Below are positions 6,832-42,645 of a stretch of 64,000 nt of DNA, piece by piece (the stretch's first letter is position 1; each line of letters opens with the position of its first letter). A program made the position numbers and the translations under genes. The notes under the pieces are model-generated. The model worked only from the letters and a program-made list of their open reading frames with translations. It had not been told where the DNA came from and ran no database searches. The stretch lies in assembly GCF_056712565.1 (NCBI RefSeq), contig NZ_CM160072.1. One strand, written 5' to 3'.

Positions 6832-6916
6832 GCCGAAGTGGCGAAATCGGTAGACGCAGTTGATTCAAAATCAACCGTAGAAATACGTGCCGGTTCGAGT
6901 CCGGCCTTCGGCACCA
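6832..6916 (+). tRNA. leuX: tRNA-Leu (anticodon CAA), 85 nt with encoded CCA end
   Basis: GCCGAAGTGGCGAAATCGGTAGACGCAGTTGATTCAAAATCAACC...GGTTCGAGTCCGGCCTTCGGCACCA: class II tRNA with long variable arm, anticodon loop TTCAAAA. Confidence 0.95.
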
Positions 6917-6930
6917 AAAGTATGTAAATA

Positions 6931-6953
6931 GACCTCAACTGAGGTCTTTTTTT
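6931..6953 (+). terminator. Rho-independent terminator of leuX
   Basis: Hairpin GACCTC-AACT-GAGGTC followed by a run of 7 T. Confidence 0.75.
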
Positions 6954-7176
6954 ATGCCTGAAATCCAGTGTTTATCTATCTTTCCCGCTATATTAACTCT
7001 CTCAAGGTCAACCGATATCAACGTACATCTACCAACATATGTTGGTACAGATGATGGTATTTCCGGTTCGATAATGCTTGTACCAACAGGGAGGGAATAC
7101 GATGGCATTAACAGATATCAAAGTCAGAGCAGCCAAGCCAACGGATAAGCAATATTAGCTGACTGATGGTGGCGGT

Positions 7177-8367
7177 ATGCATCTGCTTGTCCATCCAAAT
7201 GGTTCTAAGTACTGGCGTTTGCAGTACCGTTATGAGGGAAAGCAAAAAATGCTGGCACTTGGGGTTTATCCTGAAATCACACTAGCGGATGCCAGAGTAC
7301 GTCGTGACGAGACGCGTAAGCTGCTTGCGAATGGCGTCGATCCGGGAGACAAAAAGAAAAATGATAAGGTTGAACAGAGTAAAGCACGAACCTTTAAAGA
7401 AGTCGCGATTGAGTGGCATGGCACCAATAAAAAGTGGTCTGAAGATCACGCCCATCGTGTGCTAAAAAGTCTTGAAGATAATCTTTTTGCAGCGCTTGGT
7501 GAACGTAATATCGCTGAGTTAAAAACTCGAGATTTATTAGCACCTATTAAGGCCGTAGAAATGTCTGGACGTCTTGAAGTGGCCGCTCGTCTTCAGCAGC
7601 GCACTACAGCCATCATGCGCTATGCAGTGCAAAGTGGGTTAATTGATTATAACCCGGCACAAGAGATGGCTGGGGCGGTTGCTTCCTGTAATCGACAACA
7701 TCGTCCCGCGCTTGAATTAAAGCGCATCCCTGAGTTGCTTACAAAAATAGATAGCTATACTGGTAGGCCGCTAACCCGATGGGCGATAGAACTCACTTTG
7801 CTGATCTTTATTCGGTCCAGTGAGCTGCGTTTTGCTCGTTGGTCAGAGATCGATTTCGAAGCGTCTATATGGACTATCCCACCGGAGCGGGAGCCTATTC
7901 CTGGAGTGAAACATTCCCATAGAGGCTCAAAAATGCGTACAACGCATCTAGTGCCTCTTTCAACGCAAGCTCTTGCAATTTTAAAGCAGATAAAACAGTT
8001 TTATGGGGCCCATGACTTGATATTTATTGGTGATCACGATTCGCACAAACCCATGAGTGAGAATACGGTAAATAGTGCGTTACGGGTCATGGGGTATGAT
8101 ACAAAAGTAGAGGTTTGTGGTCATGGCTTTCGAACAATGGCCTGTAGTTCATTGGTCGAATCAGGTCTGTGGTCTCGTGATGCTGTTGAACGCCAGATGA
8201 GCCACATGGCGCGAAATTCAGTGAGGGCCGCGTATATCCATAAAGCAGAGCATCTGGAAGAACGGCGATTGATGCTACAGTGGTGGGCCGATTTTCTGGA
8301 TGTAAACAGAGAAAGGTTTATCAGTCCATTTGAATATGCAAAGATTAATAATCCATTAAAACAGTAA
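7177..8367 (+). CDS. intB: P4-type tyrosine integrase; intact ORF begins at internal ATG because the native start (ATG 7102) is followed by an in-frame TAG at 7156-7158
   Basis: 396-aa ORF with tyrosine-recombinase C-terminal region (HGFRTMACSSL...RAAYIHKAE); upstream in-frame MALTDIKVRAAKPTDKQY-stop-LTDGGG is the typical P4-integrase N-terminus; directly downstream of tRNA. Confidence 0.85.
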   Translation: MHLLVHPNGSKYWRLQYRYEGKQKMLALGVYPEITLADARVRRDETRKLLANGVDPGDKKKNDKVEQSKARTFKEVAIEWHGTNKKWSEDHAHRVLKSLEDNLFAALGERNIAELKTRDLLAPIKAVEMSGRLEVAARLQQRTTAIMRYAVQSGLIDYNPAQEMAGAVASCNRQHRPALELKRIPELLTKIDSYTGRPLTRWAIELTLLIFIRSSELRFARWSEIDFEASIWTIPPEREPIPGVKHSHRGSKMRTTHLVPLSTQALAILKQIKQFYGAHDLIFIGDHDSHKPMSENTVNSALRVMGYDTKVEVCGHGFRTMACSSLVESGLWSRDAVERQMSHMARNSVRAAYIHKAEHLEERRLMLQWWADFLDVNRERFISPFEYAKINNPLKQ

Positions 8368-9768: not shown

Positions 9769-10103
9769 CTGCTCTCCAATGACTAGTCTAAAAACTAGTA
9801 TTAAGACTATCACTTAAATAAGTGATATTGGTTGTCTGGAGATTCAGGGGGCCAGTCTAGTAACCTCATAAAAAATCCTGTACTCACAGGGTGATGCGGG
9901 ATAACTGACGTAAGGAGTGCTGCAGGGATTTGATGGTCCCTTGTGCTGATATGAATACGGATATTTTATACAGAATACTTTTCAGTACAAGCGACTGTAT
10001 TACAGTCTGCCATATATGATTACCTGTGATCAGGAAGAATAAGTGGCTGAGGTTTCAAACTGTCTGCCGGTATATTCCTCTCTCCCTTAAAAACCATAAC
10101 AGG

Positions 10104-11325
10104 TTAGTTATCTTCGTCTGTCAGCGGATTGAATGGCGGTATATTTTCAGTACAAATACCGGTCATCCACTGAAAAATACCTGCGAAATGACGGGCACTG
10201 ATTTTTCTACTGACGGGCTGATGAGACGTTATGTCACTGGCGGTAATAATCAGTGGCACACTGTAGCCTCCCTGCACATGACCATAATGATGAACAGGAT
10301 TGGCACTGTCGCTGACCGACAGCCCAAGGCCAGAAAAGTAAAGCATGGCGAAATGACGTGAGTACCGGCGAAGGATACCATCAAGCTGGCCAAGAAAGTT
10401 ATCCAGTTTACTGATGCTGGCGAGGTAACAGGCAATTTTTCGGGGATACTGCTCCAGGTAATTATTCGGCTAGGAGTTAAGGCTGTCACACGGATTTGGA
10501 TGAGAACCCATCATGTGCAGGAAAATTATCTTCGGAGAGGATGTATCCGCCAGCGCACGTTCTGTTTCCTGTAACAACAGTTTGTCATCTGTTTTACGGG
10601 AAGCGAAGCTGCCTTTCTTGAGGAAAGTGGCATGCTCCGCATCAGAAGCAATAACAGAGATGCGTGTGTCATGCCCCCCAGTTTTCCTTGATTGGATATC
10701 CACCATGTGCTGTATCCTGCTTTTGCTGCCAGCGCCACCACATTGTTGCCGGAATCAGGGTTCTGCTCATAGTCATAAATCAGTGTCCGGCTCAGGGAAG
10801 ACACTGTACTGGAGGCTGTCGAGGTATAATCGTCAATAAATAAACCGGGTGCCGTATTCAGCCACGGTGTGGTTGGTACGGGATAGTCATACACTGACAT
10901 ATAATCCCTGCGCACACTCTCACCAGTGACAATAACAATCGTATCATATAACGGTGCTCCCGGCTGGATTTTCCAGTTGTCAGCCCCGTGCTACTCAGTT
11001 GTTCATAACGCTGCATTTCACGTAATGTGTCAGTTGTCCCCACAACTGTTCCTTTAACCATCCGCAATGGCCAACGGTTTACAGAGCATAATACGAATAG
11101 CCGTAGAGCCAGCCAGTTACGGTGGTCGCGATGGTGTGTCCGCCAGAAAATCACCACGAATACCAGAATCGCGGCACTGACCAGAAAATGATAAACAGGA
11201 AACACGGGGCGGTTCACTTTGCTTTCTCCTGTAGTGTTTTCTGTAGGTTCTGAACCGGTTCTAGCGGGGTTGTGAGGCTGATGGCAATCGCCGGGCTCTT
11301 CCTGCATGTTACACTGGTACTGCAA
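10104..11325 (-). pseudogene. yjgX: Decayed phosphoethanolamine-transferase/sulfatase-family gene (yjgX-like), broken into at least 5 frame-shifted fragments
   Basis: Consecutive minus-strand ORF fragments (80, 79, 78, 129, 155 aa) in different frames; sulfatase-type motif IIFLHMMGSHPNP; a TM segment in the N-terminal fragment. Confidence 0.6.
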
Positions 11326-12515: not shown

Positions 12516-13941
12516 TAATGCCAGTCAGTTAAGCAACTGACTGGCTCTTTTTCGGGGCTGTGGGGTATTTCCAGGGCCTCTCCTTTACCACTCTCGGGAA
12601 GGCCCTTTCCCTTCTTGTCGGTAATTTCACAAGTTGTCCCATACTTGCAAGATCGCGCATCAGCTCCGGTATACGTCCCGGTGAAGCGCCCTGCAATGTT
12701 ATCAGCATTCTCATCACCATTCCGCATGATTCTGAGAAACTCAGTTGATTCGGCCAGTAACCTTTCAGATGTTCCGCCATTTTAATCATCTGATATCTCA
12801 CCAGATTATAAGCCAGTAAGACACCCCACAGCTCTTGCTCCACAAGCTCCGGCTTTTTACTTCTCAGCGTCAGCCTGCTCCGTTGCATCGTCTGTTTTAT
12901 CTCCCTGTATCCCAGTTCGATTTCCCAGCGATGACTGTACAGATCCCCCATTTCTCCTCCGGGGAAGCGCATGGCGTCCGTCATCGACGTCAGCAGATGG
13001 CAGACTTTTCCTTTGCGCGTCACGGTCAGCAGGCGGGCAGTCACTTCATTTCCCAGTCCCGGCCACTTTTTTCGTGCCTGCGGGCTGGTTTTCAGCTTCA
13101 CCAGATGATCGCCTTTACCCAGTTTTCTGATCTCTTCATATTGCGCTCCCTTTCTGAGAGGTATCATCCAGTGGCGGTGTTCTCCCGCCAGGCTCCAGGC
13201 ATTTAACAGTCCCAGTGAGTAATAACCTTTATCCATTAACGTCAGAGTGTTATCGCCGGTTTGTTCTATAAGTTGCTCAGCAAGCTCATTTTCGCTGTTC
13301 TTCATCGTGCCGAAGGCTGCAGCCGTCAGCAGATGGCTGGTCAGTTCCATCTGGCAGACCATTTTGACCTGCGGGTAGAGCGCCGGGTTCCCGGCATGTG
13401 TCTGGCGGGGGAAGGCTGCATCGTTCTCTGGTGTATCCGGTGTGCGCCAGAACACACCATCGATGGCCAGCAGGGTCAGGCCGCACCAGTGCGGATGCGG
13501 CGTGGCGTTATGCCAGAGCTGCGCTGTTTTCGTGAACACGCGGCGGACAGCCTCACTTCCCAGGCGCTGGCGGGCCTGAATAACGGCACTGGGGGCAACG
13601 AAGGGGCGATTGCCCGGCAGCATGATGTCCAGGCGATTCACAATCTGGTGAAGAGGTTCTTTACGCTCAAGCGCCATGCCAACAATACACCAGACCATCA
13701 TTTCGAGGGGAAGACGGCGCTTGCGTAGCGTTACAGTACCTGATTCGGCAAGGCAACGAGAGATGAGTTCGGGGTCGAGGTAATCCCCCAGAGAAGTCAG
13801 TGGGTTACGCAGAGAATCGTAACGGGATACCAGATCAAGAGCCTGTCCAATGTGCATAAAAAAATCCGGAAACAAGTGAGCGTTTCCGGATTCTTACACA
13901 GCCACTGGATCGGTCAACTGATCCTTAACTGATCGGCATTA
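12516..13941 (-). mobile_element. IS4 insertion sequence (1426 bp) with 18-bp terminal inverted repeats
   Basis: Ends TAATGCCAGTCAGTTAAG ... CTTAACTGATCGGCATTA; length 1426 bp; encodes the IS4 transposase. Confidence 0.9.
12529..13857 (-). CDS. insG: IS4 transposase (InsG)
   Basis: ORF 12529..13875; start set at [16 protein letters not shown] (442 aa); DDE transposase. Confidence 0.9.
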
Positions 13942-13953
13942 ATCTTGGTTCTG
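13942..13953. repeat. Right copy of 12-bp IS4 target-site duplication ATCTTGGTTCTG
   Basis: Identical to 12504..12515. Confidence 0.85.
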
Positions 13954-14049
13954 GTGTTTGTAACAAACTATCAGCTACAAAAATATGCTCAATTTGTGAC
14001 ATCAGTAACAAAACGCGTTTTGTTATGTGGATTGCTTGTTTTTTGATCT

Positions 14050-14072
14050 GGTATAACAGGTATAAAGGTATA
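14050..14072 (+). promoter_or_regulatory. NanR-type operator: three GGTATA hexamer repeats upstream of yjhBC
   Basis: GGTATAACAGGTATAAAGGTATA, the repeated GGTATA motif bound by the sialic acid regulator NanR. Confidence 0.55.
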
Positions 14073-14483
14073 CAGAAAAGCAAAGAAATACTGCAAAGGA
14101 AAACAGCTATAACGTAAGCTAAAGTAATAACCTCTCAGTCTTTCCTCATTTGACGAAGGGAGTTTTATTCAACCTGAACGGACTACGAAAATGAGCACAA
14201 TGAATAAGTCAATTTTTGAAGCAGGGTTGAACTGTGCCAGTGGTGGAATATCTGGCGAACATTGTTTTTTGTTGGTGACCCAAAACTGTAGGTGGGTATC
14301 AGTTTTATCTTTCATAGAGTGAAATATGTTAAGAAGAAATGGAGGAAAAGATTGTACTGATTAGGTATTGATAACAATCAATAGTACTGGCGTATTTGAA
14401 GACAATATAATTATTTCTGGATATTGTTGAGGCTCCCTAATATTTACTTTAAGGGCTATATTAGAATAACACAGGAAACAAAT

Positions 14484-15701
14484 ATGGCAACAGCATGGTA
14501 TAAACAAGTTAATCCACCACAACGGAAAGCTCTTTTTTCCGCATGGCTTGGATATGTATTTGATGGCTTTGATTTTATGATGATATTTTACATTCTTCAT
14601 ATTATAAAAGCAGATCTTGGCATTACGGATATTCAGGCTACTTTAATAGGGACAGTGGCCTTCATAGCCAGACCTATTGGAGGTGGTTTTTTTGGTGCCA
14701 TGGCTGATAAATATGGTCGTAAGCCAATGATGATGTGGGCAATTTTCATTTACTCAGTCGGAACAGGCCTTAGCGGTATTGCTACAAACTTATATATGCT
14801 CGCAGTTTGCCGTTTTATTGTTGGCTTAGGGATGTCTGGTGAATATGCATGTGCTTCAACTTATGCGGTAGAAAGTTGGCCTAAAAATCTTCAATCTAAA
14901 GCTAGTGCTTTTTTGGTAAGTGGTTTTTCTGTTGGAAATATTATTGCGGCACAAATAATCCCTCAGTTTGCTGAAGTATATGGATGGAGAAACTCTTTTT
15001 TTATAGGCCTGTTACCAGTTTTACTAGTTCTTTGGATCAGAAAAAGTGCTCCAGAAAGTCAGGAGTGGATTGAAGATAAATATAAGGATAAATCAACATT
15101 TTTGTCTGTCTTCAGAAAACCACATCTTTCAATCTCTATGATCGTTTTCCTCGTCTGTTTTTGTCTATTTGGTGCAAACTGGCCGATAAACGGACTACTT
15201 CCTTCCTACCTGGCAGATAATGGAGTTAATACAGTGGTCATTTCAACTCTGATGACAATAGCAGGTTTAGGAACACTGACAGGTACAATATTTTTTGGTT
15301 TTGTTGGTGATAAGATTGGTGTAAAAAAAGCCTTTGTAGTCGGTCTAATAACTTCATTTATTTTCCTTTGTCCTCTTTTTTTTATTTCTGTGAAAAACTC
15401 TTCTCTTATAGGATTATGTCTCTTTGGATTAATGTTTACAAATTTAGGTATTGCAGGGTTGGTTCCAAAATTTATATATGATTACTTTCCAACAAAATTA
15501 AGAGGATTAGGGACCGGTCTTATTTATAACTTAGGGGCAACTGGAGGAATGGCCGCACCTGTATTAGCTACATACATTTCAGGATATTATGGCTTAGGTG
15601 TTTCATTATTCATTGTTACGGTTGCATTCTCTGCCTTATTAATTTTGTTAGTTGGTTTTGATATTCCAGGTAAAATTTATAAACTATCCGTGGCTAAATG
15701 A
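14484..15701 (+). CDS. yjhB: MFS transporter, NanT-like (sialic acid-related)
   Basis: ORF 14424..15701; start set at MATAWYKQVNPPQRKALF (405 aa); 12-TM MFS protein. Confidence 0.8.
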   Translation: MATAWYKQVNPPQRKALFSAWLGYVFDGFDFMMIFYILHIIKADLGITDIQATLIGTVAFIARPIGGGFFGAMADKYGRKPMMMWAIFIYSVGTGLSGIATNLYMLAVCRFIVGLGMSGEYACASTYAVESWPKNLQSKASAFLVSGFSVGNIIAAQIIPQFAEVYGWRNSFFIGLLPVLLVLWIRKSAPESQEWIEDKYKDKSTFLSVFRKPHLSISMIVFLVCFCLFGANWPINGLLPSYLADNGVNTVVISTLMTIAGLGTLTGTIFFGFVGDKIGVKKAFVVGLITSFIFLCPLFFISVKNSSLIGLCLFGLMFTNLGIAGLVPKFIYDYFPTKLRGLGTGLIYNLGATGGMAAPVLATYISGYYGLGVSLFIVTVAFSALLILLVGFDIPGKIYKLSVAK

Positions 15702-37462: not shown

Positions 37463-37669
37463 ATGGCTACCCCTGTTTCGCTGATGGATGACCAGATGGT
37501 CGACATGGCGTTTATCACTCAACTTACCGGCTTAACCGATAAGTGGTTTTACAAACTCATCAAAGATGGGGGCTTTCCTGCCCCCATCAAAATGGGGCGC
37601 AGCTCCCGCTGGCTGAAAAGTGAAGTGGAAGCCTGGCTGCAGGCGCGTATTGCACAGTCCCGTCCGTAA
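37463..37669 (+). CDS. alpA: AlpA-family phage-type transcriptional regulator
   Basis: 68 aa, MATPVSLMDDQMVDMAFITQLTGLTDKWFYKLIKDGGFPAPIKMGRSSRWLKSEVEAWLQARI; start by frame within ORF 36959..37669. Confidence 0.75.
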   Translation: MATPVSLMDDQMVDMAFITQLTGLTDKWFYKLIKDGGFPAPIKMGRSSRWLKSEVEAWLQARIAQSRP

Positions 37670-37748
37670 TTTCTGACCGTTATCCGTTCACCCGCAGCAG
37701 ACGTAATCTCCGGCCTGCCGGCGGCATTCTGCTGCCTGTTATATCCCC

Positions 37749-38366
37749 GTGAGGAATATGAAAATGAAACAACAGTATCAGACCCGCTACGAATGGCTCC
37801 ACGAAAGCTACCAGAAATGGCTGACCGGCTTCACCCGGCACGCCGTATTCTGGGGCGTGTGTCATCCGAATATCTACTACTTCCATAATCTGACGCCCGG
37901 TTGGGTGTCATTCAATGGTGAAAAACCGGAGATTGCCATCGTACCCCAGAGCCTGCACCGGCTGATTTATGGCCCTGACAAACGGGCCACACCGCCCCTG
38001 GATGATGATCTGATAGTGAATTTATGCACCAGTGAACATCTGCTGGTTCATCATCCGATGCTGGAAGGCATTCTCCTGTCTGAATGTGAACGTCTGAGGC
38101 AGCGTTCTCTGGCAAATAAACTGATCAGCCTCTTCCGTCAGTTTGGTGGCACGGAGTTGCGCCTCAAACTGGTCTGGCTTTGCTGGCTTGATTTAATGAC
38201 CGGAAACTGCCTTGACGACTGGACGGAGAATCTGAAACGGAAATCAGAAAAAGAGCTGGAGGAATGGATCATCAACCGTCAGAAGCAGAGCGCAGCACTG
38301 ACGGATCTGATGGATCAGTACGTGCTCCTGTCATACCGCACAACGGTTGACGATAAGCGCACCTGA
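37749..38366 (+). CDS. Hypothetical protein, 205 aa, no recognised domain
   Basis: ORF immediately downstream of alpA; Cys/His-containing, no TM segments. Confidence 0.5.
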   Translation: MRNMKMKQQYQTRYEWLHESYQKWLTGFTRHAVFWGVCHPNIYYFHNLTPGWVSFNGEKPEIAIVPQSLHRLIYGPDKRATPPLDDDLIVNLCTSEHLLVHHPMLEGILLSECERLRQRSLANKLISLFRQFGGTELRLKLVWLCWLDLMTGNCLDDWTENLKRKSEKELEEWIINRQKQSAALTDLMDQYVLLSYRTTVDDKRT

Positions 38367-38588
38367 TGCCAGTTGTTTCAGGGAAGCTGGTATCCGGGCA
38401 GGGTGCCAGGGCTGACTGAACGGCCTGTCTGCCTGCCGTTTCGCTCTCCGTGCGTTCTGTCACACGCTGCACCTGAACGCCGGACTGCGGGCACGCAGAC
38501 AGGAAAGTCGCAGGCTGGAACTTCTGACCGGCGGGTATCAGTTATATGCCTGTTGATTCATCACCACCACGCAGCTCCTGAGCTTTAG

Positions 38589-38628
38589 TTCATCACCGAT
38601 ATTCATACATCTGAATATCGGTGATGAA
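38589..38628. repeat. Perfect 17-bp inverted repeat (TTCATCACCGATATTCA-TACATC-TGAATATCGGTGATGAA) between two convergent genes
   Basis: 17/17 complementary arms with 6-nt loop; no flanking T tract on either strand. Confidence 0.6.
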
Positions 38629-38687
38629 ATCCCCATAATAATCAATCATCTAAGTCTGAAGCATAATGGAGAAAAACTGCTCACCGG

Positions 38688-40172
38688 TTACTTCGCTCTC
38701 AGCTTATTGTAGTGATAACCCGAGGTAAAAATACCAGAGACATCAGACAACTTTAAACTGGCTATCTGGGGAAGCAGAACATACATGGTTTTTCCTTCCG
38801 GCACGACAGAAAGCCTGAACTGAGATTCAAGAATGTTCAGCAATGCGTTCAGTTTTTTCCTGTTTCTGAACCGGCCCGGGCCACACTGGAGAATATAATT
38901 TTTCCTGACACGGGGCGGGCATTCTCCGCGGCACTCCTCAATGAGCCAGTCGAACAGCTCCTCGGCGTCCTTCTGCTGCAGTTCAGATTCATCAGGTAAC
39001 GCAAATAATTTTTTATATTCATCTGTGTACCACGAACTTATTACGACAGCAGACGTCATGATATCGGCAGAGATTTTCCCTTCACCATAGCTGAAATACT
39101 GAAATAACGCTGCAATTCTTGCAATGTTTTCTGTTTTTTTTGAAACATGTCCCCGAAACGGGCTTAAGGGTCCGGAAGGGGATAAATCCTGCTCCAGAAC
39201 ATTATAGTGCTCAATAAATATTTTTTGCGCTTCAGGCGAAAAATGCAGACAATACCGTTCATCCTCACTGGATTTTTCAATACTGCCTCTGGCCAGTTCC
39301 ATTAATCGTTCATGAAATGCCGTTAATGATCCTCCCGGAATCACAGCTCCGTTAATAAAGCGTTTCCCCTGCGTGGTTGCAGGTTTACTGATAAGACAAC
39401 GGGCAAGAAAACCACTGTCCCTGGCAACAGAACCTTTTCGCTCCATATATCGGTCAAAAAGACCGGGTTGCACCATGAGGGATAACGTCATTCTGGCATT
39501 TTCAATCATCTGTTCGGGTTCATTCTTTCTGTCCACAGACAATACAGAGCCATCCCACATTTTGTTAATAAAAGGCAACTCAGACAGGGTATATCCATCA
39601 AATATAATACCGGCTTCATCTGACATAATACCAACTGAACGCCATTTACCACAAAGCTGATTCTTAATTGCCGCAGTCGTGGCATCATTAAAAATGAATT
39701 TATACCTCACAGGTTCTTCCGCACTGTTTTTCTGAAGTACTTCCAGTTGTCTGAGGGTTTCTGACTCATCCGCGCCTTTGCGGAGTTCTTTATTCAGTTT
39801 TGACAACAATGCTTTTTTCTGAGCCTTTAAAAGCTCTTCCTTGTTTTTCCAGACAGCCAGTTCACTTTTGTATCTGGAATATAACTGCATCTCCTGCTGG
39901 TACAGGGGCTTCATTAATAATTTGTCCACTGCGGTTTTTCGTTCTCCGGACTCGGCAAGCGTCAGGAAAAAAAGAGAGACCGGCCCCCGCAGTGTATTCA
40001 GTCTGCAGACATCAATCAGATTCTGGCAGACAAGTGAAACAGCGCCCAGGGCAGACGCTGCCACAAGCCCAAGGGGAGCCTGCGTAATTTGCTGAGCTTC
40101 AATAACGGCATCACGAATGAGTGGAGGCAGCGAACTCAGGGGAAACTCATCACAAGGCTGACCGAATGACAT
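38688..40172 (-). CDS. DUF3987-like (YfjI-like) protein of phage-satellite/integrative-element type
   Basis: ORF 38688..40241; start probably MSFGQPCDEFPLSSLPPLIRDAV…; N-terminal pattern typical of DUF3987 (recollection). Confidence 0.5.
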   Translation of the reverse strand: MSFGQPCDEFPLSSLPPLIRDAVIEAQQITQAPLGLVAASALGAVSLVCQNLIDVCRLNTLRGPVSLFFLTLAESGERKTAVDKLLMKPLYQQEMQLYSRYKSELAVWKNKEELLKAQKKALLSKLNKELRKGADESETLRQLEVLQKNSAEEPVRYKFIFNDATTAAIKNQLCGKWRSVGIMSDEAGIIFDGYTLSELPFINKMWDGSVLSVDRKNEPEQMIENARMTLSLMVQPGLFDRYMERKGSVARDSGFLARCLISKPATTQGKRFINGAVIPGGSLTAFHERLMELARGSIEKSSEDERYCLHFSPEAQKIFIEHYNVLEQDLSPSGPLSPFRGHVSKKTENIARIAALFQYFSYGEGKISADIMTSAVVISSWYTDEYKKLFALPDESELQQKDAEELFDWLIEECRGECPPRVRKNYILQCGPGRFRNRKKLNALLNILESQFRLSVVPEGKTMYVLLPQIASLKLSDVSGIFTSGYHYNKLRAK

Positions 40173-41241
40173 AGTAACCTCACTATACACAGATATAAAA
40201 GCACTGCAATTCTGGCTATTAATAGCAAAAATAGCAGTCAAATCAATATGAGGTAAAATTTTTTGTTGATTTAATGGTTAAATAATAACCACAGTGTATT
40301 TTGCTGCTGAAGAAAGACAAAATGAATCTGTGTGTCCCCTCCTTCCCTTCGGAGCACATCCACTATTCAAATTTTACACAACCACGTACGAACAAAAAGC
40401 ATCATCCCGGGTATTGCAGATACCGGTTTCCTGCCGGGAAGAATCATAAACAGAACACCGGGAATAACGCCTTCAGGAATCACCCCCCCTCCTGAAGAAG
40501 AATAAAATAAAGAAGACTACAGTTCCTGCACTGAATGCTGAGTACAATATTTTATGGACAGGATGACATTTTTATAAATAACAAAAACCATTTAATACTG
40601 ATACATCAATAAAATACTTCTTCCCTGCTGACACAGATAAAATGCACCATTTTTTCTTCAAATACTTCTGTATAATCGCCAGCCAATGATGAGAATGGAT
40701 TAAAATAACACTTCTTCGACAAACACAAAAACAGCCTTCATTTTACATCATCATCCAGTTTCAGTTAACCCCGGACGAGCGACAGTGTTTCAGTACAGGA
40801 ATTAAAAGCCAGCTTTTGCTCAGTAAAACACACTCAACTAATAATATCTCAGCAGATATTATCCTGACCAGGACACCTCACATTACTGAATTCTCTTCCG
40901 ACAGTATCACTGCACAAATAAAAAGAACGGGATAAATATTCAGACCGGAAGAATGGTGTCACAAAAGCATTTAATCATTACGCATGACCAGGAAGGGAAA
41001 CACTTAACCACATGGTATCAACAGATATCATTACGTGTGCACTCTTATAAAAAACACACAGAAGAAGTAAGATAATTATAAACGTAAATTTAATATCTCC
41101 CACTGACATCTCCCCCACAATACACTAAAAAATACTCACAGCAGTAAACACAGATACACCTGATAATCATACAGCCGATAAATATTTTCCCCTTTACGGA
41201 GAAATCAGCCTGCTGTTTAACAATAACGGCGTATTTTCATG

Positions 41242-41282
41242 GAAGGAGATCACCCAGTAACGGATAAGTCCTGATCTCCTTC
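41242..41282. repeat. 11-bp perfect inverted repeat with GATC in each arm, about 120 bp upstream of the GTPase gene
   Basis: GAAGGAGATCA-(19 nt)-TGATCTCCTTC. Confidence 0.4.
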
Positions 41283-41401
41283 ATGTTAATACGCAACAAT
41301 CCCATCGATTCAAAACAATTTCAGACAGATATTATCTCCGTGAATCCCCCGCCACCTTTCCGGTGCGCGGGGTTTTGTCTTTTTTCACCGGGAATACATG
41401 T

Positions 41402-42274
41402 ATGAATCCGTCTGATGCCATTGAGGCAATTGAAAAACCGCTCTCCTCCCTGCCTTACTCACTTTCCCGTCACATCCTGGAACATCTGCGCAAACTCACC
41501 AGTCACGAACCCGTGATTGGCATTATGGGTAAAAGCGGGGCCGGTAAATCCTCACTCTGTAATGCACTGTTTCAGGGGGAGGTCACCCCGGTCAGTGATG
41601 TTCACGCCGGCACCCGGGAAGTACGGCGCTTCCGTCTGAGTGGCCACGGTCACAGCATGGTTATCACTGACCTGCCCGGGGTGGGCGAGAGCCGGGACAG
41701 GGATGCAGAGTATGAAGCCCTGTACCGTGACATTCTGCCCGAACTGGACCTGGTGCTGTGGCTGATTAAAGCCGATGACCGCGCCCTGTCTGTGGATGAG
41801 TATTTCTGGCGACACATCCTGCACCGGGGACATCAGCAGGTGCTGTTTGTGGTGACGCAGGCCGACAAAACGGAGCCCTGCCATGAATGGGATATGGCCG
41901 GCATTCAGCCTTCTCCCGCACAGGCACAGAACATTCGGGAGAAAACGGAGGCGGTATTCCGTCTGTTCCGGCCCGTACATCCGGTTGTTGCCGTATCGGC
42001 CCGCACCGGCTGGGAACTGGATACGCTGGTCAGTGCGCTAATGACAGCACTTCCCGACCATGCCGCCAGTCCCCTGATGACCCGCCTGCAGGACGAGCTG
42101 CGCACGGAATCTGTCCGCGCTCAGGCCCGTGAACAGTTTACCGGTGCGGTGGACCGGATATTTGACACGGCGGAGAGCGTCTGTGTTGCCTCTGTTGCCC
42201 GTACGGTTCTGCGTGCCGTCCGTGACACGGTGGTCTCTGTTGCCCGCGCTGTATGGAACTGGATTTTCTTCTGA
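41402..42274 (+). CDS. YeeP/YkfA/YfjP-type GTPase (CP4 prophage family)
   Basis: ORF 41363..42274, start MNPSDAIEAIE; G1 motif GKSGAGKSS, G3 DLPG; precedes the Ag43 gene as in CP4-44. Confidence 0.8.
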   Translation: MNPSDAIEAIEKPLSSLPYSLSRHILEHLRKLTSHEPVIGIMGKSGAGKSSLCNALFQGEVTPVSDVHAGTREVRRFRLSGHGHSMVITDLPGVGESRDRDAEYEALYRDILPELDLVLWLIKADDRALSVDEYFWRHILHRGHQQVLFVVTQADKTEPCHEWDMAGIQPSPAQAQNIREKTEAVFRLFRPVHPVVAVSARTGWELDTLVSALMTALPDHAASPLMTRLQDELRTESVRAQAREQFTGAVDRIFDTAESVCVASVARTVLRAVRDTVVSVARAVWNWIFF

Positions 42275-42392
42275 ACAGTCCGCCAGGGAAATGCCTGATA
42301 ACATTACGTTAACCAACTGAAAACATGACACAAACCCCTCATACTCCTCCTGTTTCTCTTGCGTGACCGCCTTGTCGTTAATAGAATAAAAC

Positions 42393-42428
42393 GATCGATA
42401 AAACAGGTATCGATCGTTACTATCGATC
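42393..42428 (+). promoter_or_regulatory. Antigen 43 phase-variation switch: three GATC (Dam) sites, expected to overlap the OxyR site
   Basis: GATC at 42393, 42412 and 42425 (spacing 19 and 13 bp) about 220 bp upstream of the flu start codon. Confidence 0.65.
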
Positions 42429-42645
42429 GTTTATAGTGGTTAATGGTCTGCGAAAAGGCAGCTGAATCTCTTCATCATGCAGAACGGAATTGCACACAAC
42501 GGACTGATACTTCTCTGGCGGATGAGAGAGGGGAAGCATTTATGTCCGGGAAAAACCACTTTATCTGAGCATGCTGTTTTGTACCTGCCGGTATCCACAT
42601 TTGTGGGTACCGGCTTTTTTATTCACCCTCTGTAAGGAAAAGCTG

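Follow-up and report, generated by a model that had tools for sequence, protein, structure and literature searches.

The aec62 and yfjI genes beside alpA in an Escherichia coli genomic island: probable backbone genes at the edge of a defence hotspot

Introduction

Do the genes that adjoin the regulator gene alpA in an Escherichia coli genomic island serve defence against phages, or the life cycle of the island itself? The question is raised by a locus within a 64,000-nucleotide (nt) stretch of DNA (RefSeq assembly GCF_056712565.1, contig NZ_CM160072.1; the whole stretch is hereafter the window), in which alpA is followed by a small gene, aec62, on the same strand and by a large, convergent gene, yfjI. 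An earlier note on this DNA regarded the two genes as a possible accessory or anti-phage defence module. We propose instead that they are backbone genes of a decayed CP4-57/CP4-44-type island that lies within a composite island at a tRNA-Leu gene. The explanation as a whole is rated somewhat better than even; that the genes have a backbone function in the island life cycle, and are not defence cargo, is considered quite probable. For aec62, the observations behind the latter proposition include constant linkage to alpA and to a Gp2-like gene, variable adjoining cargo, and the lack of a defence match in PADLOC.

RefSeq and UniProt already list the small protein as hypothetical (Aec62) and the large one as a member of the YfjI family, and islands of this type have been described before; a literature search on YfjI, Aec62, and DUF3987 with AlpA returned these names and no functional experiment. 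The additions made here are modest: that Aec62 is restricted to Enterobacterales and has no relative in the structural libraries searched, that it marks the unchanging boundary of a hotspot rich in defence systems, that it is a positional alternative to YfjI, and that its gene carries a conserved leader hairpin. The features at the center of the argument are as follows.

37463–37669, + strand: alpA, encoding a 68-amino-acid (aa) AlpA-family helix-turn-helix (HTH) protein of the excisionase/regulator family (Pfam, PHROG, RefSeq)
37688–37742, + strand: conserved two-tier stem-loop in the aec62 leader, with outer stem GCAGCAGA/UCUGCUGC and inner hairpin CCGG-N4-CCGG (covariance model R1)
37764–38366, + strand: aec62, encoding a conserved 200-aa protein, probably of the island backbone (family, motifs, synteny, substitution rates, UniProt name)
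38589–38628, no strand assigned: perfect 17-nt inverted repeat TTCATCACCGATATTCA with a 6-nt spacer, ~60 nt past the yfjI stop codon in the convergent gap (repeat scan)
38688–40172, − strand: yfjI, encoding a 494-aa YfjI-family/DUF3987 protein, a putative helicase-like P-loop backbone protein (Pfam, PHROG, identity to YfjI of E. coli K-12, motifs)

Gene Neighborhood and Defence Cargo

Synteny was examined by tblastn mapping in 30 aec62 loci from species-representative genomes, and in about a dozen more obtained by exact-protein look-up. In all 28 loci that have upstream DNA, alpA lies upstream of aec62 on the same strand; the two genes are directly adjacent (gap ~85–130 nt) in 27 of these, and are separated by a zinc-ribbon gene in the remaining one. 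This answers the earlier note's question on neighborhood conservation for the small gene. In almost every locus, a Gp2-like gene (Pfam YagK_YfjJ_C / REP_ORF2-G2P) immediately follows aec62 or immediately precedes alpA, and the divergent side encodes a ~305-aa protein of unknown function, a YeeP-type GTPase, DUF932, antirestriction, and RadC proteins, and CbeA/CbtA. By contrast, yfjI adjoins aec62 in none of the 30 loci from outside E. coli, and no DUF3987 gene lies within 10 kb in any of them; the adjacency is limited to E. coli loci of the window's type, present in 1128 of the 3530 aec62-bearing genomes. Because YfjI is the neighbor in none of these 30 loci, there is no conserved Aec62–YfjI pair, and the module proposed in the earlier note loses its basis as a unit.

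The genes that follow the alpA–aec62(–Gp2-like) block differ from locus to locus. They encode BREX in Klebsiella, DndBCDE with DndFGH-like proteins in Yersinia ruckeri and Pantoea, and an LlaJI-type system at another locus; PADLOC additionally recognizes Gabija, ZacABC with a type III methylase, type I restriction–modification (R-M) in eight loci, PDC-M27 with a GajB-like helicase, PD-Lambda-4, Ppl, PDC-M54, and Shango SngA. Defence genes recognized by PADLOC are situated just downstream in 14 of the 17 related loci tested, which bears out the reading of the alpA region in such islands as an anti-phage hotspot; the earlier note was also right in placing the locus in an alpA-bearing integrative island. 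aec62 is also present with no cargo after it, in the window, UTI89, and O104, and homology between E. coli copies ends 16 nt past its stop codon. Because the downstream cargo varies while aec62 stays, aec62 is, to judge from gene order, the constant edge of the hotspot and not its content. The integrase of these islands, where within reach, is at the far end of the cargo.

The same architecture is found with YfjI in place of Aec62. In K-12, CP4-57 has the order intA–yfjH–alpA–yfjI–yfjJ (Gp2-like)–[abpBA and rnlAB, defence]–yfjP...yfjZ/ypjF (the GTPase block), and in Enterobacter and Dickeya the order is integrase, a gene of unknown function, alpA, yfjI, a yfjJ-like gene, and then BREX or a type III R-M system. 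Because these orders match that of the Aec62-type islands, the slot X in alpA–X–Gp2-like–cargo belongs, by position, to YfjI in one type of backbone and to Aec62 in the second.

Three large open reading frames (ORFs) in the defence slot, in the 10 kb that follows aec62, have no PADLOC match (at E ≤ 1e-10 for the first and E ≤ 1e-20 for the other two): positions 13392–15116 of locus L025 (574 aa), 12810–14567 of L037 (585 aa), and 16125–19235 of L039 (1036 aa). These are candidates for uncharacterized cargo.

The Aec62 Protein Family

An ORF scan recovered alpA and both neighboring ORFs where the earlier note had placed them. The ORF of the small gene (37749–38366, + strand) would encode 205 aa from a GTG codon, and the likely start is the ATG at 37764, giving 200 aa; this start is supported by RefSeq, by alignments of homologues (all of which begin MK...), and by a Shine-Dalgarno sequence (GAGGAA) 7 nt upstream. 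The ORF of the large gene (38688–40241, − strand) would encode 517 aa from a TTG codon, with the likely start at the ATG at 40172, giving 494 aa; homologues begin at the Met of this form, and RefSeq agrees. Both ORFs are confirmed, with slightly over-extended starts.

The UniProt name Aec62 (Q5K5T0, 98% identity) denotes an ORF number, not a function; the protein of the window is also 97% identical to a 4113-member E. coli cluster (P0002). The family comprises ~190 database proteins of 191–204 aa that are 44–65% identical and align almost without insertions or deletions (indels). Hosts include Escherichia, Salmonella, Klebsiella, Enterobacter, Yersinia, Hafnia, Serratia, Pantoea, Pectobacterium, Photorhabdus, Providencia, and Morganella, among others. 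A profile search of 1.84 billion representative proteins recovered this family only, together with ~10 full-length divergent members (23–32% identity) that are located in the same kind of island; this exhaustive search yielded no homologue outside Enterobacterales. Contigs labeled as Bacillota, Clostridiales, and Collinsella metagenome-assembled genomes (L026, L030, and L046) bear the island block at enterobacterial identity, and are probably mis-binned contigs rather than cases of transfer.

Within E. coli, aec62 occurs in 3530 of 5426 complete genomes (65%), at a median of two and up to seven places per genome, and these copies are almost all chromosomal. The gene is absent from genuine plasmids and phages in the collections searched: the matches obtained there were rejected as mislabeled chromosomes or unplaced fragments, including a 37-kb "plasmid" that is a linear assembly fragment. 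The ratio of nonsynonymous to synonymous substitution rates (dN/dS) is 0.06–0.10 among close orthologues, 0.13–0.25 against the window copy, and 0.22 between E. coli copies. Because ~190 indel-poor relatives are spread across genera and dN/dS is 0.06–0.25, aec62 is, on this comparative evidence, a real gene under purifying selection and not a chance ORF.

Searches with the single sequence and with a 13-member divergent alignment (A2) gave no match to Aec62 in NCBIfam, PHROGs, PADLOC, or PDB sequences (the last by phmmer and profile), nor in Pfam at a cutoff as lax as E ≤ 10, in agreement with the earlier statement that the 205-aa protein has no recognizable domain. A 30-residue match to ICT1 (E 0.08) was dismissed. 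The AlphaFold model, which supplies the structure prediction that the earlier note had proposed as a check, has no match outside its own family among solved, AFDB, or viral (BFVD) folds. Profile alignment by hhalign gave no relationship of the family to YfjI, to the ~305-aa divergent neighbor, or to a Gp2-like protein. The earlier note had named homology of the small protein to a replication or packaging protein of P4-like satellites as evidence against its proposal, and no such homology was found.

Invariant positions in the family include Y16, Q17, G31, P61, G102, S106, E107, C108, R110, L111, C140, and W141, and two motifs are characteristic, GxLxSECxRL (also written G-[IV]-L-[LI]-S-E-C-x-R-L) and LLCW, both of which are present in the window protein. 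Of the several Cys and His residues to which attention had been drawn, the Cys residues C108 and C140 are thus invariant, whereas the histidines are not conserved across the divergent alignment. At one locus, in Salmonella diarizonae (L021), a single island has two divergent Aec62 paralogues (10001–10579 and 13073–13591, with 62% and 34% identity to that of the window); the second lies after its own Gp2-like and zinc-ribbon genes, as at locus L013.

The YfjI/DUF3987 Protein

The earlier placing of the convergent 517-aa ORF as DUF3987-like is upheld by a match along essentially the full Pfam model (PF13148; E 1.8e-95; residues 54–414 of the 517-aa ORF on model positions 1–363 of 364). The protein also matches PHROG 2373, "DNA helicase" (E 3.2e-82), is named "YfjI family protein" in RefSeq, and is 53% identical to K-12 YfjI over 465 aa. 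Two motifs, AESGERK[ST] (residues 73–80) and MSDEAG (183–188), are invariant across 20 family members; by inference from their sequence they resemble Walker A and Walker B, the first departing from the canonical GxxxxGK[ST]. DUF3987 is the sole domain detected by Pfam, with no primase domain, and sequence and profile searches gave no solved relative among PDB sequences. The AlphaFold model is poor (predicted local distance difference test score 59.7, with the core below 50) and does not support a comparison of folds. In PADLOC-DB v2 the one match is to a CARF model, at E 0.031 over 40 residues.

The Leader Hairpin and the Inverted Repeat

AlpA itself is assigned by matches to Pfam Phage_AlpA (PF05930; E 5.9e-8, model positions 3–51 of 51), HTH_17 (E 1.6e-6), and PHROG 66, "excisionase and transcriptional regulator" (E 1.3e-9). 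Between alpA and aec62 is the stem-loop, the folded part of which (37694–37735) has a minimum free energy of −19.8 kcal/mol (z −1.5). In 29 of 29 loci, the covariance model R1, built from ten sequences with a hand-given structure, has a single strong match at E < 0.01, located immediately 5′ of aec62 every time; no comparable match was obtained in the rest of the 726 kb, or in CP4-57. Where the zinc-ribbon gene parts alpA from aec62, the hairpin stays with aec62. In the alignment fitted to R1, 83.6% of paired cells can pair, compared with 36–52% after sliding of the partner, and both sides have changed in 8 of the 16 pairs. The frequent sense-strand G-U pairs suggest an RNA, or a structure in sense-strand single-stranded DNA.

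The hairpin lacks a proper U-tract and has no Rfam match at gathering thresholds; at E ≤ 1, Rfam gives only chance eukaryotic matches in 37400–38800, away from the hairpin. RNAalifold applied to a plain MAFFT alignment of the alpA–aec62 spacer missed the stem, with the 5′ arm misaligned. The corresponding position is taken by different hairpins in Pantoea (L009) and Providencia (L045).

The inverted repeat in the gap between the convergent genes is unique in the window, and elsewhere is present only in two other yfjI-bearing loci; by this distribution it belongs to the yfjI segment. Because there is no T-run on either side, it is, on its sequence, not a canonical terminator.

Genomic Context of the Locus

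The 5.4 kb around the locus is E. coli chromosome and, among the matches listed, has 100% identity to strains including HS13-1 and SF-468; at least 80% of the region is present in 171 genomes. The flanking features are as follows.

36155–37144, − strand: remnant of an IS66-family transposase gene (tnpC) without its N-terminus (RefSeq annotation of the identical region)
37145–37462, no strand assigned: native island DNA (~320 bp) left upstream of alpA after the IS66 event (95% identical to the O104:H4 copy)
40173–41401, no strand assigned: A+T-rich spacer of 1.2 kb (36–44% G+C; no ORF >64 aa) between the divergent yfjI and GTPase genes (composition, ORF list)
41402–42274, + strand: YeeP/YfjP-type GTPase gene, the first of the GTPase...DUF932–antirestriction–RadC–CbeA/CbtA block (RefSeq, tblastn map)

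The 100% match to IS66 tnpC of O104:H4 stops at 37144, and homology to other islands begins at 37134; native island DNA thus begins at ~37134–37145, abutting the IS66 remnant, which on this sequence evidence truncates the island DNA upstream of alpA. The interval that remains, 37145–37462, presumably holds a promoter region. RefSeq gives the order IS66 remnant, HTH/AlpA regulator, 200-aa hypothetical protein, 494-aa "YfjI family protein", GTPase, and antigen 43 (Ag43), followed by DUF905, DUF932, antirestriction protein, RadC/JAB protein, DUF987, YeeU antitoxin, and a truncated CbtA; the toxin gene cbtA is truncated while the antitoxin gene is intact, and the DUF905 gene is frameshifted. The tblastn map places no Gp2-like (YagK/YfjJ) Rep gene in the window. 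Fuller E. coli copies retain Gp2-like, Hha, and zinc-ribbon genes upstream of alpA, and the Gp2-like gene of the window was probably lost with the IS66 event.

The earlier note had also remarked that the integrase expected next to alpA is missing, with an IS66 remnant in its place. The remnant does abut the island DNA at this point; the expectation itself does not hold, given that in Aec62-type islands the integrase, where within reach, lies at the far end of the cargo, and the composite island has an integrase of its own (7159–8367) adjoining tRNA-Leu(CAA) (6832–6916). This integrase is 29–30 kb from the alpA locus, across a mosaic of insertion sequence (IS) elements and other genes. The composite island extends from 6832–8367 on to ~49300 and comprises the integrase, many IS elements, nanXY, a BCCT transporter, the fec operon, a YmgB/AriR-like gene, and a phytase-like esterase, after which comes the CP4-44-like block.

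The spacer at 40173–41401 may hold promoters or an origin. A search for iterons or an origin found weak repeats of 2–4 copies only, and promoter-like matches are no commoner there than in shuffled sequence. Farther on, between the GTPase and Ag43 genes, is an Rfam match to IS102 RNA (RF00124; 74.6 bits; 42391–42627, + strand), at the same position as the small RNA IsrC in CP4-44 of K-12.

Comparison With Related Elements

The window has most of the genes by which CP4-57/CP4-44-type islands are recognized, namely a tyrosine integrase at a tRNA gene, alpA, and the GTPase, DUF932, antirestriction, RadC, and CbeA/CbtA genes, and lacks a Gp2-like gene beside the alpA block. It shares with CP4-57 the alpA gene, a YfjI/DUF3987 gene, and the block that begins with a YfjP/YeeP GTPase and includes DUF932, antirestriction, RadC, and CbeA/CbtA-type genes, and the general aec62-type layout of alpA, one backbone gene, a Gp2-like gene, and defence cargo is also that of CP4-57. 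The window departs from CP4-57, which has neither aec62 nor an R1 hairpin, in that aec62 follows alpA, yfjI has an inverted, convergent orientation, and there is no Gp2-like gene, adjacent integrase, or defence cargo. A candidate link between K-12 YfjH and the ~305-aa neighbors in other genera was rejected, there being no detectable relationship. CP4-44 of K-12 has no alpA or aec62.

There is a close likeness, too, to the Aec62-type islands, such as those with BREX in Klebsiella and with dnd genes in Yersinia ruckeri and Pantoea, with which the window shares the alpA–leader hairpin–aec62 block (55–65% protein identity) and the GTPase...CbtA block. Elsewhere, islands of this type have the GTPase block divergent from alpA, a flanking Gp2-like gene, defence cargo, and no yfjI; in the window, the GTPase block has the same orientation as alpA. 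By comparison with other genera, the E. coli arrangement looks like a rearrangement or inversion of the alpA–aec62 segment, with IS-mediated loss of the Gp2-like, Hha, and zinc-ribbon genes.

Islands integrated at tmRNA in Pseudomonas have intY, alpA, an inovirus Gp2-like gene, RadC, many backbone ORFs of unknown function, and variable defence cargo, and their transfer by a jumbo phage has been shown (PMC12595487); these belong to a different bacterial order and have a similar logic. P4-like satellites, phage-inducible chromosomal islands (PICIs), and minimalist chromosomal islands inducible by phage (PICMIs) likewise have alpA adjoining a replication-type gene, and DUF3987 has been used as a primase/replicase marker for AlpA-bearing satellites (PICMI) (PMC10803314). 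Unlike in P4-like satellites and PICIs, YfjI of the window has no primase domain, and Aec62 has no counterpart in PHROGs or BFVD. None of the features that define P4-like satellites and PICIs (integrase beside alpA, primase-helicase, and capsid-size, packaging, or helper-exploitation genes such as psu, sid, delta, ppi, and terS) is present in the RefSeq annotation of 29 kb around this locus, and the annotation likewise contains no capsid-redirection, packaging, Psu/Sid/Delta, or Fis genes.

Alternative Explanations

The alternative that survives best is that the genes are inert relics of a degraded island, intact through recent decay or hitch-hiking. This is a possible, if minority, explanation, and it is not exclusive of the others. 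The state of the island lends it weight: IS66 has cut it upstream of alpA, the Gp2-like gene is gone, DUF905 is frameshifted, and cbtA is truncated; many IS elements surround the locus, 30 kb away from the integrase, and truncation just past aec62 is frequent among E. coli copies. Set against such decay, both ORFs are intact, in a region that is 100% identical in the genomes listed and at least 80% present in 171; dN/dS between E. coli copies is 0.22, not ~1; and the hairpin and ~320 bp of upstream DNA have been retained.

A second alternative, which we regard as unlikely, is that Aec62 is a partner of AlpA in transcriptional control or in recombination directionality, acting on integrase expression or excision and not as a replication accessory. 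Members of the AlpA family regulate int and excision in CP4-57 (an annotation; cited in PMC12595487) or act as antiterminators, aec62, with its structured leader, is always found linked to alpA, and the N-terminal helix-helix-hairpin of the Aec62 model is a candidate small DNA-binding module. Such a role accords poorly with the near-neutral isoelectric point (pI) of Aec62, with the lack of a match to HTH or any other DNA-binding family in the libraries searched, and with the CP4-57-type islands, which have alpA without Aec62 and a helicase-like protein in its slot.

That Aec62 is a constant component linked to defence (a sensor, regulator, or anti-anti-defence partner), or forms a new anti-phage pair with YfjI, is very improbable: Aec62 always borders the defence hotspot, and its orphan fold with invariant Cys, Glu, and Arg (GxLxSECxRL, LLCW) makes an enzymatic or sensing role conceivable, but the neighboring systems work by unrelated mechanisms (BREX, Dnd, R-M, Gabija, Shango, and others) whereas Aec62 is constant, it is present where no cargo follows, neither protein matches a PADLOC defence model, Aec62 is tied closely to alpA and the Gp2-like gene and not to cargo, and YfjI adjoins it in none of the 30 loci from outside E. 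coli.

Proposed Role of Aec62

We therefore return to the preferred reading, in which aec62 and yfjI are backbone genes of the island, and consider how aec62 might act. The gene would be transcribed from the alpA promoter, so that Aec62 would be expressed with AlpA and act when the island is induced, in its excision, replication, or transfer. The leader hairpin may modulate read-through or the fate of the mRNA, possibly under the control of AlpA. Because AlpA of Pseudomonas aeruginosa is a processive antiterminator (PMC7969949, PMC9371919), an AlpA-linked role for the hairpin is suggested, for example as a leaky stop or pause that AlpA would override.

Aec62 could then be an adaptor that allows the Gp2-like initiator to use the host helicase or replisome, standing in for YfjI in islands that have no DUF3987 helicase. 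This guess is prompted by the positional equivalence with YfjI and by the lack of an island-encoded helicase in Aec62-type islands; it is tentative, and rather unlikely to be right as it stands. The combined and more specific model, which we regard as speculative and doubtful in full, is that Aec62, with a new fold, is an effector belonging to the AlpA regulon and confined to Enterobacterales, that its hairpin is read through by AlpA-modified RNA polymerase, and that it replaces the DUF3987 helicase by recruiting the host helicase or replisome.

Several observations weigh against the backbone reading and the role built upon it. Aec62 has a pI of 6.7, which is not suggestive of nucleic-acid binding, and no sequence or fold likeness to known replication, regulatory, or recombination proteins in the libraries searched. 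The helicase role of DUF3987 is an annotation-level assignment, and the Walker-A-like motif deviates from the consensus. Positional equivalence of Aec62 and YfjI is not functional equivalence, and the window carries both genes. Co-transcription of aec62 with alpA is read from gene spacing; the single-sequence stability of the hairpin is unremarkable, and its pair counts come from a model-fitted alignment. Finally, with the Gp2-like gene missing from the island in the window and cbtA truncated, the two genes may be inert there.

Significance

With regard to the defence pair proposed for this locus, the result is negative. The broader interest lies in aec62 itself: Aec62-type islands are among the commonest mobile elements of E. 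coli, and as their fixed edge aec62 provides a practical anchor for mining defence cargo. Together with its leader RNA element, aec62 may control the induction and copying of these islands. If the replisome-recruitment model is true, it would constitute a second, helicase-less replication strategy for the commonest defence-carrying islands of E. coli and its relatives.

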